Below, one piece after another: positions 19,510 through 42,708 of a DNA stretch of 43,029 bases. Made by a program: the position numbers and the translations under genes. The stretch lies in NCBI GenBank assembly GCA_011364975.1, contig RDOE01000021.1:1-43029 (forward strand). Reading direction: 5' to 3'. Each line of letters begins with the position of its first letter. Position 1 is the stretch's first letter. Source of the stretch: Promethearchaeota archaeon. Its GTDB lineage: Archaea > Asgardarchaeota > Lokiarchaeia > Sigyniarchaeales > SOKP01. Under the pieces are notes generated by a model that saw only the letters and a program-made list of their open reading frames with translations, ran no database searches and was not told the origin of the DNA.

Positions 19510-20889
19510 ATGTCTAATTTTCATTTATCTAATGAAGAAGAACACAAAGAAGATCCATTAAGACCGAAATACCACTTTTTACCACCATCAAATTGGATGA
19601 ATGACCCAAATGGGCCCATTTTTTACAAGGAAGAATATCATTTATTTTATCAATACAACCCTACTGGAAATCAATGGGGTAACATTCATTGGGGTCATGC
19701 TAAGAGTAAAGATTTGGTATATTGGGAATATCTCCCTATAGCGCTTAGTCCATCTAAAGAAAAAGGTGAAACTCATTGTTTTTCAGGTTGTTGTGTGTTA
19801 GATAATGGTAGACCAATTATTATATATACGAGTGTTGGTCCAAATAAAAGCCCTTCTACAGGAGCGGAACAGTGGCTTGCTTTTAGTAACGTTGAAATGA
19901 TAACCTGGAAAAAATACGAGAAAAATCCCATTATGACAAACTCATTACATGAAAAATTAGAGATTCATGATTGGCGTGATCCCTTTGTTTGGAAAGAAGA
20001 AGATATTTGGTATCTTATCTTAGGTGGACATATCAAAGAACCGGTACAACCTATAGTTTTGCTATATAAATCTTATAATTTATATGATTGGAAATATGTA
20101 GGACCACTCCTTATTGAAGATAAATCTAAAGGAAAGAACTGGGAATGCCCAAACTTCTTCAAGTTAGATGAAAATTATATCCTTATAGTGTCCCCTCATA
20201 ACAGAGTAATTTATTCTATTGGATCTTATGATAATTACCAGTTTAAACCTAACATATGGAATATTTTAGATTATGGAAAGTTATTCTATGCTACTAATGT
20301 TATGAAAGATAAGAATAATAGAATCATTCTATGGGCTTGGATTAAAGCGAAAGGTTCAAAAAATTGGAACGGGTGTTTAACTTTACCAAGAATTATAAGT
20401 TTGTCTCATAATAATAATAAACTAACTTTTAAATTTCCATCAGAATTGCAGAAACTGAGGAAAAGTAAATATTGTATTGAGAATATAAAATTAGATAACC
20501 AAATTATTTATAATCCATTTGACACTAAAGATTTTTGTTTTGAAATTCAGGTAGAATTACAATTAATTAACCTTGAAATTTTTTATATTAAATTAACAAA
20601 GAATAAATCCTTAAGGAAGGAAGAATCGATTGGATTTGATCTTAAAACTAATAATTTTTGGGTGGGAAAAGATAAAGTTCACTATATTCTTCCTTCTGAT
20701 GATAAACTCCTGAAACTTCATATTTATATTGATGTATCAATTATAGAGGTAATAATTAATGATCATGCTTGTATTACTACCCAAATTATCCCAAAAGATA
20801 ATTTTGCAAATAATTTAGAGATAGGTACTGTTAACGGGAGTATAATGATCAGAAAATTATTAATCTGGAATTTAAAATCAATTTGGTAA
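19510..20889 (+). CDS. Glycoside hydrolase family 32 (beta-fructofuranosidase / sucrose-6-phosphate hydrolase)
   Basis: WMNDPNG nucleophile, WGHA.S.DL, FSG, WRDP, WECP acid/base; no signal peptide. Confidence 0.95.
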   Translation: MSNFHLSNEEEHKEDPLRPKYHFLPPSNWMNDPNGPIFYKEEYHLFYQYNPTGNQWGNIHWGHAKSKDLVYWEYLPIALSPSKEKGETHCFSGCCVLDNGRPIIIYTSVGPNKSPSTGAEQWLAFSNVEMITWKKYEKNPIMTNSLHEKLEIHDWRDPFVWKEEDIWYLILGGHIKEPVQPIVLLYKSYNLYDWKYVGPLLIEDKSKGKNWECPNFFKLDENYILIVSPHNRVIYSIGSYDNYQFKPNIWNILDYGKLFYATNVMKDKNNRIILWAWIKAKGSKNWNGCLTLPRIISLSHNNNKLTFKFPSELQKLRKSKYCIENIKLDNQIIYNPFDTKDFCFEIQVELQLINLEIFYIKLTKNKSLRKEESIGFDLKTNNFWVGKDKVHYILPSDDKLLKLHIYIDVSIIEVIINDHACITTQIIPKDNFANNLEIGTVNGSIMIRKLLIWNLKSIW

Positions 20890-37121: not shown

Positions 37122-37979
37122 CTATAACTCTTTTTTCATGCGAGTTCTGTGAAATTTTAACCCGATCTCATCAGCAGATGTTCCCATAGCTAATGCTAAC
37201 AATTCTGTGATATATAAGACAGGAATTTCATAATCTTTTTCGTATTTTTTGGATAAATCCCTTTGTCTTGTATCGAATTGTTGAAAGCAGGCAGGACAGT
37301 TAACAACTAACACATCAGCACCTACTTTAGCAATGCTATCCATTTTGATTTTTAGGTTTGCCATACCATGCTCTTCATAAGCATTGGTAACTGCTGAGCC
37401 ACAGCATAAAACTTCCTCCTCATAATTAACTACAGTTGCACCAGTAGCAGCGACAATTTCCTTTAAGTTCTTTGGACGCATTACATCATCAGATTCCATC
37501 CATTCACCTGGGCGCATATAATGACATCCAGGATGGACCGCTACTTTTAGTCCACTTAGTGGTTTGGTAACTGATGCTTTAACCTTGTCCAAATTATCCT
37601 TTAATACATCTACAAAATGCTTTACATCAATTGAACCCTTGAATTCTTTACCAATTTTGGCTAATTCCTTGTTGATTCTATTCTTCTTAAGTGAATCATG
37701 TTTTAATTGATGCTGCACACCTCTAAGGGTGTTGGCACATCCGTTGCATAATGAGATAATATCTTTACCTTCTGCTTCTGCTAAACATAAATTGCGGGCA
37801 CCAATCGCTAACCAGGCTTCGTTATCGAAGCTTTTCATTCCCGTAGGGTCTGGACAACAACTAAATGGCGCTTGAGACGTTTCAATTCCAACCTTATCGA
37901 AAACTTTTCTTGAAGCAGCTTCTATAAACGGAATTCTGTTTCCAATAGTACATCCTTCAAACATTTTAAATTCTGTCAT
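37122..37979 (-). CDS. hdrB: Heterodisulfide reductase subunit B
   Basis: Two CCG domains: EGC, SCCP, LCNGC; HPGCH, CCG, NCPAC..QFD. Confidence 0.93.
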   Translation of the reverse strand: MTEFKMFEGCTIGNRIPFIEAASRKVFDKVGIETSQAPFSCCPDPTGMKSFDNEAWLAIGARNLCLAEAEGKDIISLCNGCANTLRGVQHQLKHDSLKKNRINKELAKIGKEFKGSIDVKHFVDVLKDNLDKVKASVTKPLSGLKVAVHPGCHYMRPGEWMESDDVMRPKNLKEIVAATGATVVNYEEEVLCCGSAVTNAYEEHGMANLKIKMDSIAKVGADVLVVNCPACFQQFDTRQRDLSKKYEKDYEIPVLYITELLALAMGTSADEIGLKFHRTRMKKEL

Positions 37980-37994: not shown

Positions 37995-38501
37995 TTATTT
38001 TAGCTTTTTTTCAGCTCCAATATTTTTCATTAAGGTTTGCAATTCTCCAACATTAGGCTCTGCAACCGCAGGTAATCCTAATTGTTGTCGTCTTCGCTCA
38101 ATAGCAGGCTGTGAAGGAATCGCTTTAGAACTCTCGAAGATTGCTTTTGCTTGAGAATAAATAAATTCGGGCGCATTCCCTTGTTCCGCAGATTTATTCT
38201 TTAAAAATGTAAAAATCTCAGTCAACTCAATATGTTGAGGACATACTTCATCGCAGGTATCACATACAGTACAGCCCCAGATCGCCAATGGATCTTGAGA
38301 AAAGATCACATCTTTATACCCTAAAAGCGCAGCTAAGATATTCGCTCTTGGATCATAACCAGTTGTGGTATAAAAATCCTTGGATACAGCAGAAACTGGA
38401 CAATTATCTGTACATCTCGAACATTGATAGCAATATTTTATTAAATCAGAGCTCACATGCTTATCCATTACTTCCTTTCGGAATTCAAAATCAACCATCA
38501 T
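37995..38501 (-). CDS. hdrC: Heterodisulfide reductase subunit C
   Basis: CYQCSRCTDNCP and WGCTVCDTCDEVCP (2x[4Fe-4S]); directly upstream of hdrB. Confidence 0.92.
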   Translation of the reverse strand: MMVDFEFRKEVMDKHVSSDLIKYCYQCSRCTDNCPVSAVSKDFYTTTGYDPRANILAALLGYKDVIFSQDPLAIWGCTVCDTCDEVCPQHIELTEIFTFLKNKSAEQGNAPEFIYSQAKAIFESSKAIPSQPAIERRRQQLGLPAVAEPNVGELQTLMKNIGAEKKLK

Positions 38502-38551
38502 GTTTTATTCACATTTTCCGATTTTTCATTCATTTTTCTTTTACATATATA

Positions 38552-38621
38552 TTGGCTTTAACCCGGGCATGGGCAGTTATATCCAATCTATTATTTTTAT
38601 TGGATATTCATCCTAAGCCAA
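38552..38621 (-). promoter_or_regulatory. Candidate SECIS element (eukaryote-like kink-turn hairpin) overlapping the vhuU stop
   Basis: mRNA: GGC(UU)AG-GAU-GA-AUAUCCAAU-AAAAAUAAUAG-AUUGGAUAU-AA-CUGCC; perfect 9-bp stem, A-run loop, AUGA core; the 3' side has AA rather than the canonical GA. Confidence 0.6.
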
Positions 38622-38760
38622 CGTTCAACTTTCGAGAGTAAATCTCTTCACCGTTTTCTTTAACTACGGTTAAATGAGCCGCGCAGCTTAATCAACAATC
38701 AAAACAGCGCACGATCATTTCCAACAGATTTACTACTCCCTCAGGCACGTCTTCACTCAT
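38608..38760 (-). CDS. vhuU: Selenocysteine-containing [NiFeSe]-hydrogenase subunit VhuU (not in the ORF track)
   Basis: Manual translation MSEDVPEGVVNLLEMIVRCFDC-U-LSCAAHLTVVKENGEEIYSRKLNVGLG*; in-frame TGA at 38692-38694 sits at the first ligand of the D-x-[C/U]-x2-C-x2-H motif that VhuA lacks; alternative GTG start at 38772 after GGAG. Confidence 0.9.
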
Positions 38761-38798
38761 TTTAATATTCACGTTTTCTCCTTTAATTTTTATATTGT

Positions 38799-40103
38799 TT
38801 ATTTAATCCAAGGTTCGGGTAGTTTTAAACCATCCAAGGCCTTGTCTTCAAATACCTGCTTAGCAACATGCATTAATGTTTTCTCGATCCCTGCAATATT
38901 ATGATTTGTCGCCACAAGAAGGTTAGCTTTCTTACATAGCCCATCAGCATCTGAAAAGATATGATACAAAAGAAGACCTCTCGGGGCTTCAACTACGCCC
39001 ACACCATCAGCTTCTCTGGGTTCAACATCTAAGGTCTTGCAATCAGGATTTACTATATCTGGATCTTGAAGCAATGTGGCAATCATTTCAATGGATTCGA
39101 CCAATTCAATTAAACGCGCCCAATGATAAGCAAAAGTGAAATGGGGAGTATTCCCAATTTTTGCTCTCATTGCTTTTAATGCCTCATCTGCTAAGGGAGT
39201 AGCCATCTTATCTGCAGCATTTATCATTGCTAAAGTATTTGCCCTATATATACCATCTGGATATCCTGCGGGTTTATAATACATGTGAGTTGCATAAGAA
39301 TGCTCCGGAATATGCTCTCCCAGTGCTTCCAAATATTTTTGAGGAGGATAATCAAATTTCTGACCATCAGGACTTACAATTCGAATATCTCCTTCGTAAA
39401 TATCATGAACACCGTTTTTTGTCATACCAGCATAGTAAGTTGGCACTACACCAACATTAGCTACGACATCCCAATAATCCTCGACAACCTTTAAGCCAAT
39501 ATCAACTGTCTTTTTTGACCACTCAACTTGGTCCTCAATCTGCTTTAAGAATTTATCCCGAGCGGTTTCATCCATCGCCTTTTTCATCCCACCAACGATT
39601 GCACTTATGGGATGGACAGATTTACCACCGATCTCGGCACATAACTTCTGCCCGAAGTCCATCATCTTTAAAGCCATAGCCCCTACATCAGGCATCTTGC
39701 TAATGACATGAACAACATTCCTTAACGCGGGGTCTGCAAAAGGTCCTAATAGAAAATCTGGTGCAGCTAATGCATAAAAATGTAATGCATGAGAACTGTA
39801 TTGTTTTGCATTCATGAGCAATTGTCTTAATTTATATGCAGGTTCGGGAATTTGAACACCCCATGCATCTTCTACTGCTTTAGTTGGAGCTATATGATGA
39901 GGTATTGGACAGATTCCACAGATTCTAGGAGTAATCCTTGGGATGTGTTCACAATATCGACCCTCAAGAAACTTTTCAAAGAATCTTGTGGATGTGATAT
40001 TGAACTGCACATCCTTAACTTTGCCATCATCGCTTAGGACTAATCTTAAACCACCATGTCCCTCTAATCGAGTGACTGGTTCTACTTCTATCACTTTATC
40101 CAT
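38799..40103 (-). CDS. vhuA: Group 3c [NiFe(Se)]-hydrogenase large subunit, split type (lacks C-terminal L2 motif)
   Basis: TRLEGHG, RFFEKFL.GR, RICGICP..H (L1), EAPRG.L, LLVAT.HN; ends PEPWIK with no DPCxxC. Confidence 0.93.
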   Translation of the reverse strand: MDKVIEVEPVTRLEGHGGLRLVLSDDGKVKDVQFNITSTRFFEKFLEGRYCEHIPRITPRICGICPIPHHIAPTKAVEDAWGVQIPEPAYKLRQLLMNAKQYSSHALHFYALAAPDFLLGPFADPALRNVVHVISKMPDVGAMALKMMDFGQKLCAEIGGKSVHPISAIVGGMKKAMDETARDKFLKQIEDQVEWSKKTVDIGLKVVEDYWDVVANVGVVPTYYAGMTKNGVHDIYEGDIRIVSPDGQKFDYPPQKYLEALGEHIPEHSYATHMYYKPAGYPDGIYRANTLAMINAADKMATPLADEALKAMRAKIGNTPHFTFAYHWARLIELVESIEMIATLLQDPDIVNPDCKTLDVEPREADGVGVVEAPRGLLLYHIFSDADGLCKKANLLVATNHNIAGIEKTLMHVAKQVFEDKALDGLKLPEPWIK

Positions 40104-40114
40104 TCTTTTATCAC

Positions 40115-41431
40115 CTATCTATAATTTTTATTTGCAGCTAATGTGAACTTCTCACTAAAGCCGATCTTGTCTTTGATTTGACTTAAGAGATCTTCTTTGC
40201 TTAAAGCTACATTAAATTGTTTCGTTGCTATATCAGCAAATCGTTCGGCTTGATTAACGTTCCACTCTGTTTGACCGAAGCAACCAGAGCAGGGGGCGTT
40301 AACCCGTATACACATACCACCACAGCCAGCTCTTGTAATAGGTCCTGCACATAGATATCCTTGTTCAATAAAACAGTCCTCCATATTTGGAAGGCCTTCA
40401 TAATCACGTTTAACACGAGTCATTTGAGATTTGCTTCCAATAATTCGGGGACATGTATCACAAACATTTGATATCTCAGTGAACTCTCTATGATCTCGTA
40501 AGTATGCCATTACTTTAGAGGCTATCTCTGCAGTATCACTTGGAATATTTGCTAATGAAGTTGAAGCTTTTCCATGAATTTTAATTTGTTTTAAGATGTC
40601 TGCGGATAAGTCAAATCCTGCCATTAAGGGAACGTTTAGGAAAAGAGGTAAAAATTCATATACACTTTTTTTATTTCCTGAACTTAATCCCCCAATATTT
40701 CCAACCATTTCTTTCAATTTTGCGGTTCGAGAAGATACGGTTTTTGCAGGTCCTAAGCATCCTACACAAGGTTTACCATTATTAGTACATTTTAATTCAC
40801 AACCAGTACTAGTAATAGGACCGAAACAGAGAACACCTTTCTCCAATAAACAATTTTCATTATTTAAAGAGCAATTATTACAAAATGCCGAATCTGCCAT
40901 AGGTTGTGGCTTTTGACCTAGCAAAAATGCAACAGCACTAATAATGGCTTCAGGTTTTGGAGGACATCCGCTTATATATGCATCAATTGAAATTACTTCG
41001 TCTGTAGGAACTATTTTTGAAGCAAAACCGGGCATATGTTCTTTAGGTTCATGTGGACTTTCATTAGTTATGGATTCCGCTTGTTCGAATTTGCGCTTAA
41101 CAGAATCTTGAATATCCCACACATTAGCTAACCCATGAACATTTCCGTAGCAAGAGCAAGAGCCGAAAGCAATTATTAATTGGCATTTTGCTCGCATTAG
41201 TTTTACATTTTCTACATCTTCGTTAGTTCGTAATGAACCCTCCACGAATCCGACAAGAATATCACCATCGGGTCTAGCTTTCAAAGAGTCATGTTTAAAG
41301 TCAACAACAGCTGGCCAATATACAATATCGAGTGCTGGGAGAATTGGCAACAATCCTAAATGTGCATTTAATAAGGATTGATGACAACCCCAACAATCTG
41401 ATCCTTGCATAAAAGCTACTTTTACTGCCAT
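40115..41431 (-). CDS. vhuG: Group 3c hydrogenase small subunit with duplicated C-terminal Fe-S module
   Basis: CWGC, EGS, FGSC, GCPP proximal ligands, then two 8-Cys modules CxxC..C..C.GPIT..GC...C.....PCxGC. Confidence 0.9.
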   Translation of the reverse strand: MAVKVAFMQGSDCWGCHQSLLNAHLGLLPILPALDIVYWPAVVDFKHDSLKARPDGDILVGFVEGSLRTNEDVENVKLMRAKCQLIIAFGSCSCYGNVHGLANVWDIQDSVKRKFEQAESITNESPHEPKEHMPGFASKIVPTDEVISIDAYISGCPPKPEAIISAVAFLLGQKPQPMADSAFCNNCSLNNENCLLEKGVLCFGPITSTGCELKCTNNGKPCVGCLGPAKTVSSRTAKLKEMVGNIGGLSSGNKKSVYEFLPLFLNVPLMAGFDLSADILKQIKIHGKASTSLANIPSDTAEIASKVMAYLRDHREFTEISNVCDTCPRIIGSKSQMTRVKRDYEGLPNMEDCFIEQGYLCAGPITRAGCGGMCIRVNAPCSGCFGQTEWNVNQAERFADIATKQFNVALSKEDLLSQIKDKIGFSEKFTLAANKNYR

Positions 41432-41655: not shown

Positions 41656-42708
41656 ATGAGTATGAAAAAAGTGAGTTCGAGCGTTATTCGGTTAGCTCAT
41701 GGTGCGGGTGGTGTGTTACAAGAAGAATTAATTAATTTCATTACACGCAATATCACTTATAAGAGAGTGAATAAAGGAATTGGAGTAGAAGAATTGGATG
41801 ATGGCGCTACTATTCCTTTAGAAGATTATGATCAAGAAATTGTGGTTACGGCAGATGGTCATACAGTATATCCTATCTTTTTTCCTGGAGGTAATTTAGG
41901 GATTTTAAGTGTATGTGGTACGGTTAATGATTTAATCATGATGGGAGCCCAACCTTTAGCAATTACTTCTATCATAATCATTGAAGAGGGCTTTTCATTT
42001 GATTCTTTAGAAAAAATCGTGAATTCATTTAATTTCAAGGCTAAGGAAGCAAATATTGCTATAATTGCAGGAGATACTAAAATAATGCCAAGAGGAACAT
42101 TAAATGAAATAATCATGGCTACAACGGGGATCGGATTAAAAGATAAAAATATAAAAGTATTAGATAGCAATTGTCAAGTTGGAGATAAAATTATTATCAC
42201 GGGGAGTATCGCCGATCATGGTACTGCATTGATAGGTAGCCGTGAAGGCTTAAATATTGCGTCCGATCTAACCTCAGATGTAAACCTATTAACGGATATT
42301 TACGAAGTGTTAAAGCCAGAATTAGCAGAAAACATTATTCATGCGATGAAAGATCCTACACGAGGTGGAATTGCTGGAGCGTTAAATAATTGGGCAAGTA
42401 AATCGAATGTAAGTATTCAATTAATCGAAGAATCAATTCCAATTAAAAGGCAAGTTAGTGCTATTTGTGAAATGCTCGGTCTTGATCCATTTATGATTGC
42501 ATCAGAAGGAAGAGCTTTAATATCAGTAAATCCAAAGAATGTAAATGATATTTTAGAGAAAATACGCTCTACCAAAATGGGTAGAGATGCAGAAATCATT
42601 GGAGAAGTAAAAAAAGATAATCCTAAAAAGGTATTTTTGAAAACACTTGTTGGAGGAACTCGCTTTGTGGACATGCCCTTAGGAGAGCCTATCCCTAGAA
42701 TTTGTTAA
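41656..42708 (+). CDS. hypE: Hydrogenase maturation carbamoyl dehydratase HypE
   Basis: LAHGAGG, DDGA, P.FFPGG, GTVND, GDTK, DPTRGG, C-terminal PRIC. Confidence 0.96.
   Translation: MSMKKVSSSVIRLAHGAGGVLQEELINFITRNITYKRVNKGIGVEELDDGATIPLEDYDQEIVVTADGHTVYPIFFPGGNLGILSVCGTVNDLIMMGAQPLAITSIIIIEEGFSFDSLEKIVNSFNFKAKEANIAIIAGDTKIMPRGTLNEIIMATTGIGLKDKNIKVLDSNCQVGDKIIITGSIADHGTALIGSREGLNIASDLTSDVNLLTDIYEVLKPELAENIIHAMKDPTRGGIAGALNNWASKSNVSIQLIEESIPIKRQVSAICEMLGLDPFMIASEGRALISVNPKNVNDILEKIRSTKMGRDAEIIGEVKKDNPKKVFLKTLVGGTRFVDMPLGEPIPRIC

Follow-up and report, generated by a model that had tools for sequence, protein, structure and literature searches.

We analyzed a stretch of 43,029 nucleotides from a Promethearchaeota archaeon (contig RDOE01000021.1 of assembly GCA_011364975.1, positions 1 to 43,029 of the forward strand; hereafter the window) with a focus on vhuU, a 50-codon selenoprotein gene that an earlier note on this DNA had proposed as the missing end of a split [NiFeSe]-hydrogenase large subunit. 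The gene occupies positions 38608..38760 of the minus strand, starting with an ATG at 38760 and stopping with a TGA at 38610-38608, and its sole internal in-frame TGA is codon 23 (38692..38694, minus strand), interpreted below as a codon for selenocysteine (Sec, U). Thirty-eight nucleotides separate the ATG from the stop of vhuA at 38799; vhuA itself (38799..40103, minus strand) encodes a [NiFeSe]-hydrogenase large subunit of 434 amino acids (PF00374) that is devoid of the C-terminal ligand segment. At its other end vhuU runs into a lokiSECIS-type hairpin (38577..38611, minus strand; SECIS, selenocysteine insertion sequence), whose AUGA (38611-38608) provides the vhuU stop codon as its UGA, and hdrC and hdrB follow downstream on the same strand. 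The start, coordinates and neighbours of the gene had been placed correctly from the letters alone.

Structure of vhuU and the split large subunit

Translated with TGA as U, minus-strand positions 38772-38608 read VNIKMSEDVPEGVVNLLEMIVRCFDCULSCAAHLTVVKENGEEIYSRKLNVGLG, followed by the terminal TGA, and the segment EMIVRCFDC-UGA-LSCAAH with a 21-residue tail, previously noted in the gap before hdrC, is reproduced exactly. Twenty-one residues are encoded beyond His29; the mature peptide is predicted to comprise residues 1-29, with the His at its C-terminus and the 21-residue extension cut off. A GTG at 38772, 5 nucleotides from a GGAG, was considered as a start codon and rejected: it is unconserved, and several relatives carry stop codons between it and the ATG. 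Because those stops lie after GTG 38772 and the ATG is kept in 28 of 30 related loci that were fetched, ATG 38760 is the supported start. As had been anticipated, standard calling of open reading frames (ORFs) misses the gene: vhuU is absent from the table-11 ORF list with a 40-amino-acid minimum, and under table 11 its frame ends at codon 23. The only family match of the peptide, with C replacing U, is the NCBIfam model VhuU NF041786, at 48.2 bits.

The homology of the two products is read directly from alignments with solved chains. VhuA carries the N-terminal RICGIC at residues 60-65 and ends in ...LPEPWIK with no C-terminal Cys/His motif; its top match is NCBIfam VhuA NF041785 (468.6 bits). 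Residues 5-418 align to 4-417 of the 418-amino-acid VhuA chain 9sfi_g, that is, over its full length (E 1.1e-124), and the protein aligns to 4-416 of the unsplit 473-amino-acid MvhA chain 5odc_F. The claim that VhuA ends before the C-terminal Ni ligands therefore holds, since the 434-amino-acid ORF stops at MvhA/VhuA residue 416-417. The VhuU peptide aligns to residues 418-455 of the same MvhA chain (E 4.9e-6), i.e., where VhuA ends, and further alignments were obtained with 7t2r_D (424-451), 9sw2_F (418-449) and 9sfi_M (2-27). The last of these is the 27-amino-acid VhuU chain that accompanies the 418-amino-acid A chain in 9sfi, and the Sec position of our peptide falls on the X of that chain. 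In the comparison with MvhA, whose motif reads ...raydpclscath, U23 is matched with the first Cys and Cys26 with the second. The C-terminal ligand motif of large subunits is D-P-C-x-x-C-x-x-H, and its first Cys in MvhA is the terminal ligand of Ni, whose place Sec takes in [NiFeSe] enzymes; the UGA had been assigned to precisely this position, and the alignments agree. Judged from them, the split is exact, with VhuU picking up where VhuA stops, and VhuA bears the N-terminal Cys pair and VhuU the putative C-terminal ligand pair.

Conservation of the UGA codon and of the coding sequence beyond it

A vhuU match was detected in 53 of the 61 related genomes searched. The 30 loci fetched from relatives are all distinct in their DNA, and in every one of them TGA occupies codon 23 and also ends the gene. 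Compared with the window copy, these loci show 306 synonymous versus 93 non-synonymous codon differences past the UGA, and 257 versus 69 ahead of it. All 27 codons that follow the UGA are variable in their third position, and the LSCAAH of the ligand motif is preserved among them. Conservation of the UGA and of the coding sequence downstream of it is thus a direct observation, and on these codon counts the pattern is more than would be expected by chance.

Among 20 more distant loci, 16 have Sec in the motif and one (L074) has Cys, giving a Sec/Cys pair of the kind that alignment with VhuU and the C-termini of MvhA had been expected to reveal; for the remaining three, the match as a whole was scored, and it holds one TGA in each. 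We also collected 80 public contigs, mostly metagenome-assembled genomes (MAGs) of Promethearchaeota or Promethearchaeia and a few with other labels, encoding a VhuA of 83-92% identity. The vhuU motif with TGA is present in 72 of these loci, and the gene also stops with TGA in 67 of the 72. The other eight comprise two with little or no downstream flank and six with hdrC directly after vhuA (L131, L175, L176, L179, L185 and L191). In these six, VhuA ends in ...DPWIK, at the same 434-amino-acid end, and for three of them the same MAG holds a second listed vhuA locus (L126, L182 and L197). Either these vhuU-less second operons could obtain their VhuU in trans, or they could be inactive.

A lokiSECIS-type hairpin overlapping the stop codon

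The hairpin begins 80 nucleotides downstream of the Sec UGA. In the minimum-free-energy fold its stem consists of 9 base pairs (38607-38599 with 38587-38579) and its loop of 11 nucleotides (AAAAAUAAUAG, 38598-38588), after which AA stands at 38578-38577. Elements of this type were described from Lokiarchaeota by Mariotti et al. 2016 (Mol Biol Evol 33:2441, PMC4989117; here and throughout, this and the other papers are cited from the portions of their text available to us). As defined there, a lokiSECIS lies at the end of the coding sequence and has an AUGA 5' of the stem, a 9-base-pair stem and an 11-nucleotide loop whose first five positions are A-rich and whose ultraconserved last G usually follows an A; the stem is followed by GA, or by AA in the case of VhuU, and in VhuU.1 the AUGA doubles as the stop codon (PMC4989117). 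The hairpin downstream of vhuU agrees with the published description (section 11 of PMC4989117) on every criterion.

The structure and covariation of the stem are likewise observed directly. Across the 30 loci, 94.7% of the stem cells are paired, versus 30-39% when the partner strand is slid, and in eight of the nine pairs both sides change, a number reached by none of 500 shuffles; because the sequences are related, this shuffle count is not a probability. RNAfold predicted a stem of 8-9 base pairs and a loop of 11-13 nucleotides directly after the stop-overlapping AUGA in 58 of 71 public loci. A scan of the whole genome with the lokiSECIS pattern returned six matches, versus 0-2 in five shuffled versions: one after vhuU, three after hdrA-vhuD pairs with in-frame UGAs, which carry the same SECIS type, and two after other small ORFs. 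This position downstream of vhuU, together with the co-occurrence of the hairpin with in-frame UGAs in vhuU and the three hdrA-vhuD pairs, suggests that it directs Sec insertion at the upstream UGA.

Selenocysteine machinery in the genome

The earlier note had made its case dependent on the presence of Sec machinery, and genes for tRNA-Sec, SepSecS, SelD and EFSec were found in the genome, together with a PSTK match. The tRNA-Sec gene, with anticodon UCA and a 9-base-pair acceptor stem, lies at C106:34338-34461 (minus strand). The Rfam match spans C106:34342-34428 and includes an anticodon loop of CUUCAAA. The actual 5' strand of the acceptor is about 30 nucleotides further upstream than this match, and the molecule then shows a 9-base-pair acceptor stem, a 6-base-pair anticodon stem and a 4-base-pair T stem in addition to a long variable arm. 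Relative to intron-less orthologues of the same genus, it carries an insertion of 30 nucleotides in the 5' strand of its 7-base-pair D stem, the ends of which are ambiguous by one or two bases. All five intron-less orthologues tested pass the Rfam threshold, at 57.7-63.9 bits.

The orthologues from the same genus either have no insertion (e.g., L094-L101) or combine the D-arm insertion with a second one, of about 30 nucleotides, in the T loop (L092, L093, L102 and L109-L112; L114 reaches the contig end inside its T-loop insertion). Even within a single genus, then, tRNA-Sec introns differ in position. Of the two kinds of insertion, the one in the T loop matches what has been published for Lokiarchaeota tRNA-Sec (PMC4989117).

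SepSecS (C106:32958-34259, minus strand) follows 83 nucleotides downstream of tRNA-Sec and scores 460.5 bits against a cut-off of 224.85. EFSec is encoded by an ORF at C106:38656-40119 on the plus strand, about 4 kb from tRNA-Sec and on the opposite strand, and includes the archaeal SelB domain III (Pfam aSelB_III, E 6.3e-13). These genes are clustered at C106:32958-40119, resembling the tRNA-Sec/EFSec arrangement in the available text of PMC4989117. SelD (C76; 195 bits versus a cut-off of 125) has an in-frame TGA of its own, with Sec in ...KIHGUSCK....

The UGA codon in independent assemblies

According to the earlier note, TGT or TGC at 38692-38694 in place of TGA would have spoken against a selenoprotein. 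At the level of contigs, DNA from two studies shows TGA only. One contig (X3, from a DNA run) covers 38094-38790, including the Sec codon, with no differences from the window. Another (X8, from a DNA run of another study and derived from a related strain) covers 38618-39500 and shows 22 differences, all outside the Sec codon. Two metatranscriptome runs yielded three short contigs on this stretch of 1.5 kb, none spanning the Sec codon. One RNA-library contig (X20, 38471-38678) comprises the 3' part of vhuU, the SECIS and the first 31 nucleotides of hdrC.

The X8 contigs have one extra T behind 38606, between the AUGA and the stem, and in a group of public loci the stem likewise begins one base further from the AUGA. 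It follows that the distance between AUGA and stem can be one nucleotide longer.

Interpretation of the in-frame UGA

Considering these observations, the gene is very probably a genuine vhuU of the Loki type (Promethearchaeota) of Asgard archaea, and the group-3c Mvh/Vhu large subunit is split into VhuA and the 50-codon VhuU. A ribosome arriving at the UGA in codon 23 of vhuU would be supplied with Sec-tRNA(Sec), made by the PSTK/SepSecS route with selenophosphate from SelD and delivered by the archaeal EFSec, and this delivery would be directed by the kink-turn-like lokiSECIS hairpin 80 nucleotides downstream. The true stop codon, inside the AUGA of the hairpin, would be too near the hairpin for recoding, and translation would terminate there. 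The Ni-Fe centre would then be bound by Sec23 and Cys26 of VhuU and by Cys62 and Cys65 of VhuA. Hyp proteins (hypE adjoins the operon) would insert the metal, after which a HycI-family endopeptidase, a gene for which is present at C191, would remove the 21-residue tail after His29. Together with VhuG, VhuD (encoded beside hdrA elsewhere in the genome) and HdrABC, the enzyme would couple H2 to ferredoxin and disulfide redox chemistry. Sec insertion, tail cleavage, the composition of the complex and the physiological direction are what we infer from this arrangement, and the organism as a whole would presumably depend on selenium.

Several observations weigh against this interpretation. Scores for the families fall under cut-offs tuned to methanogens, namely 468.6 versus 800 bits for VhuA and 222.9 versus 450 for VhuG, and the 48.2 bits of VhuU are below the equivalog cut-off of 70 of NF041786, which defines the NCBI methanogen equivalog and not a functional class. 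Eight of the 61 relatives have no vhuU match, the completeness of these eight being 66-95%. The genome's own tRNA-Sec reaches 40.3 bits versus an Rfam threshold of 47, and ARAGORN missed it, reporting 23 tRNAs and no tRNA-Sec in the whole genome; both the miss and the low score arise because the D-arm insertion interrupts the gene. EFSec scores 234.4 bits versus the cut-off of 242.25 of a bacterial selB model, and the PSTK candidate (C127) scores 166.6 bits (E 6.5e-49) versus the TIGR03574 cut-off of 290.5, Pfam assigning it to KTI12. Contamination of the assembly is estimated at 6.09%, for which reason the assignment of the machinery contigs to this organism relies on the consistency of the findings in relatives. 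The stability of the hairpin is by itself unremarkable (z -1.70; 13 of 200 shuffles fold equally well), and no Rfam SECIS family was found at 38450-38850 up to E = 10, the only matches being C/D-box snoRNAs at chance level. This null result agrees with the statement, in the text available of PMC4989117, that existing SECIS tools fail on lokiSECIS elements. The RNA-library contig X20 ends 14 nucleotides before it would reach the Sec codon; an RNA library may contain DNA, and neither transcription nor the existence of one joint transcript is proved by this contig. Finally, the support for Sec insertion is at the level of sequence.

Three other explanations for the UGA were weighed. It could be read through as Cys or Trp, either by a near-cognate or suppressor tRNA or following a genome-wide reassignment of UGA. 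The Cys homologue of VhuU in L074, from which Cys appears to be functionally tolerated at position 23, would fit with this, as would the rarity of TGA as a stop codon in the window (2 of 26 long frames). However, TGA remains a stop codon, because it ends vhuU itself in all 30 fetched loci and in 67 of the 72 public ones. Moreover, a single tRNA with a UCA anticodon was found, and its 9-base-pair acceptor, long variable arm and 4-base-pair T stem are those of the Sec type; its orthologues score above threshold with the tRNA-Sec model, and its gene is a neighbour of SepSecS. The in-frame UGAs of the genome also stand at known Sec positions of SelD, HdrA and VhuD, and the same type of hairpin lies downstream of the UGA-bearing hdrA-vhuD pairs. 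We therefore consider read-through without Sec to be very unlikely.

Alternatively, the UGA might simply terminate translation, in which case the region would be the decayed C-terminal remnant of a full-length mvhA and the hydrogenase either would not function or would have to rely on another protein for its missing part. The frame does stop at codon 23 under table 11, and a vhuA without an adjacent vhuU does occur, given that 6 of the 80 public loci show a near-identical vhuA followed by hdrC. Against termination stand the invariant TGA at codon 23 in 30 distinct loci, the coding pattern beyond it (306 versus 93 codon differences; 27 of 27 third positions variable), the preserved LSCAAH motif with a covarying SECIS downstream, and the occurrence of the same split in a solved, assembled enzyme (9sfi), and we judge a decayed remnant to be extremely unlikely. 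An error of sequencing or assembly that turned TGT or TGC into TGA, the real gene encoding a Cys-type small subunit, is next to impossible; nothing was found in its favour, and TGA is present in the DNA contigs of two studies, one of them from a strain with 22 other differences, and in 30 of 30 and 72 of 72 independent assemblies.

Neighbouring genes and other candidate selenoproteins

The genes around vhuA and vhuU on the minus strand include vhuG (40115..41431), which encodes a hydrogenase small subunit of 438 amino acids (PF01058) with NCBIfam VhuG NF045875 as its top match. With 438 amino acids it exceeds the 286 positions of the family model, and its Cys-rich C-terminal iron-sulfur module is present twice; residues 171-300 and 301-438 are 35% identical over 54 residues (blastp, E 7e-12). 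Downstream of vhuU are a gene for an HdrC-like 4Fe-4S dicluster subunit (37995..38501, minus strand; Fer4 families), starting 75 nucleotides past the SECIS, and a gene for an HdrB-like subunit with two CCG domains (37122..37979, minus strand; PF02754 in two stretches and PF22196). The gene for the hydrogenase maturation protein HypE (41656..42708, plus strand; TIGR02124, 368.9 bits versus a cut-off of 251.6) is divergent from the vhu genes.

The genome to which the window belongs has a single vhuA, and the only other [NiFe] large subunit found in it is a complete gene of 444 amino acids at C180. With the queries used, this assembly, which is 99% complete, yielded no Mvh/Vhu large subunit of the Cys type. 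As for stop codons, the 26 stop-to-stop frames of at least 200 codons in the window end with TAA (19), TAG (5) or TGA (2). None of vhuA, vhuG, hdrB, hdrC and hypE has a TGA stop, and that of vhuU is the TGA within its SECIS.

Two further small ORFs of the genome are associated with hairpins of this kind. The first, of 158 codons (C169:63840-64313, plus strand), has adjacent in-frame TGAs (...DVGCUUEKVK...), a lokiSECIS-type hairpin at 64337-64371 and no Pfam match. The tail after both TGAs is conserved. The ORF has a match in 32 of 41 genomes (its own included), nearly all with exactly two TGAs, and GCUU is kept in 12 of 12 fetched loci, one of them from its own genome. This type of ORF is not among the selenoprotein families named in the available portions of PMC4989117 and PMC11227280. 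The second, of 66 codons (C154:20244-20441, plus strand), has a predicted hydrophobic helix, one in-frame TGA (...GDGTUGCAS...) and, 7 nucleotides downstream, a lokiSECIS-like hairpin (20448-20482) with eight of nine pairs. Weak matches to it (E 1e-6 to 1e-2) occur in 9 of 18 genomes of the same genus, and 9 of the 10 matches have one TGA. It is either a small membrane selenopeptide or a product of chance.

Relation to known systems

Standard ORF calls miss vhuU, which the earlier note had described as a hidden gene, but it is already in print for this lineage (PMC4989117, PMC11227280, as far as their available text goes). VhuU was listed, along with a description of its SECIS, among five selenoprotein families of Lokiarchaeota in 2016 (PMC4989117). 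The VhuU.1 described there shares with our gene a length of about 50 amino acids, a single Sec, an AUGA that is the stop codon, a 9-base-pair stem, and an 11-nucleotide loop that starts with adenines and ends in AG, as well as the VhuU-specific AA instead of GA after the stem. Its non-Sec partners VhuA, VhuG and HdrB/C are also the same, and there, too, a few kb separate tRNA-Sec from EFSec, which is encoded on the other strand. A difference is found in the tRNA-Sec insertion, which is in the D arm here and in the T loop there. The window thus adds another genome, and there is no difference in kind from Lokiarchaeota VhuU.1. An analysis of the Asgard selenoproteome (ISME J 2024, PMC11227280) found FrhA/MvhA/VhuU to be widespread, in 68.3% of the Sec-using Asgard genomes, and reported in its available text that UGA stops of Lokiarchaeia often overlap the SECIS AUGA. 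A VhuU of about 50 amino acids also appears in the accessible part of a study of Asgard archaea from wetland soil (bioRxiv 10.1101/2023.11.21.568159).

Compared with the VhuA and VhuU of Methanococcales (9sfi g and M; NF041785 and NF041786), the division of the large subunit falls at the same place, and Sec comes first in the C-terminal ligand motif and is followed by xSCAAH. On the other hand, VhuU of Methanococcales reads ...raydpX..., whereas the Asgard peptide here reads RCFDCU, and methanogens use the classical archaeal SECIS and not the AUGA/kink-turn type, as the available text of PMC4989117 has it. Unlike Methanococcales, the host here is, judging from the labels of its relatives, not a methanogen. 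The Hdr-linked MvhA of MvhAGD-HdrABC (5odc_F) is covered by VhuA and VhuU together from 4 to 455 of its 473 residues; it differs in being a single polypeptide with Cys at the Sec position. Large subunits of bacterial periplasmic [NiFeSe] enzymes (2wpn_B, 1cc1_L) are distant relatives that are homologous in their N-terminal part, only residues 5-177 or 5-222 aligning, and contain Sec within a full-length large subunit. In bacterial [NiFeSe] hydrogenases Sec replaces the same Ni ligand, and the SECIS is of the bacterial type and lies inside the coding sequence.

The segment around the Ni ligands, RCFDCULSCAAH (38692-38706, minus strand), has two extra cysteines relative to the RAYDPC/U of solved Mvh and Vhu chains. 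Position 19 of VhuU is Cys in all 30 fetched and all 72 public loci, and Ala in the solved chains. Cys also occupies position 22, directly before Sec, in 29 of the 30 fetched and 71 of the 72 public loci, where the solved chains have Pro; more distant relatives have Pro, Phe or Asn ahead of Sec. It is conceivable, if improbable, that Cys22 and Sec23 form a reversible selenenyl-sulfide or supply an extra ligand, which would provide the Asgard [NiFeSe] enzyme with a built-in redox or oxygen-protection switch unlike that of characterised hydrogenases. No mention of such a switch was found in the available text of PMC4989117 and PMC11227280, and no literature search was aimed at it.

The finding is therefore genuine, already known and ordinary for the lineage. 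The locus teaches nothing new about the system. Nevertheless, vhuU will often be overlooked in annotation because the methanogen-tuned NCBI model scores its peptide below cut-off, and without Sec-aware gene calling the only Mvh/Vhu-type hydrogenase of the organism appears truncated and catalytically dead. The conclusion, reached in 2016 and broadened in 2024, that Loki-type Asgard archaea require selenium and a SECIS resembling that of eukaryotes for their H2 metabolism is thus confirmed in one more genome.

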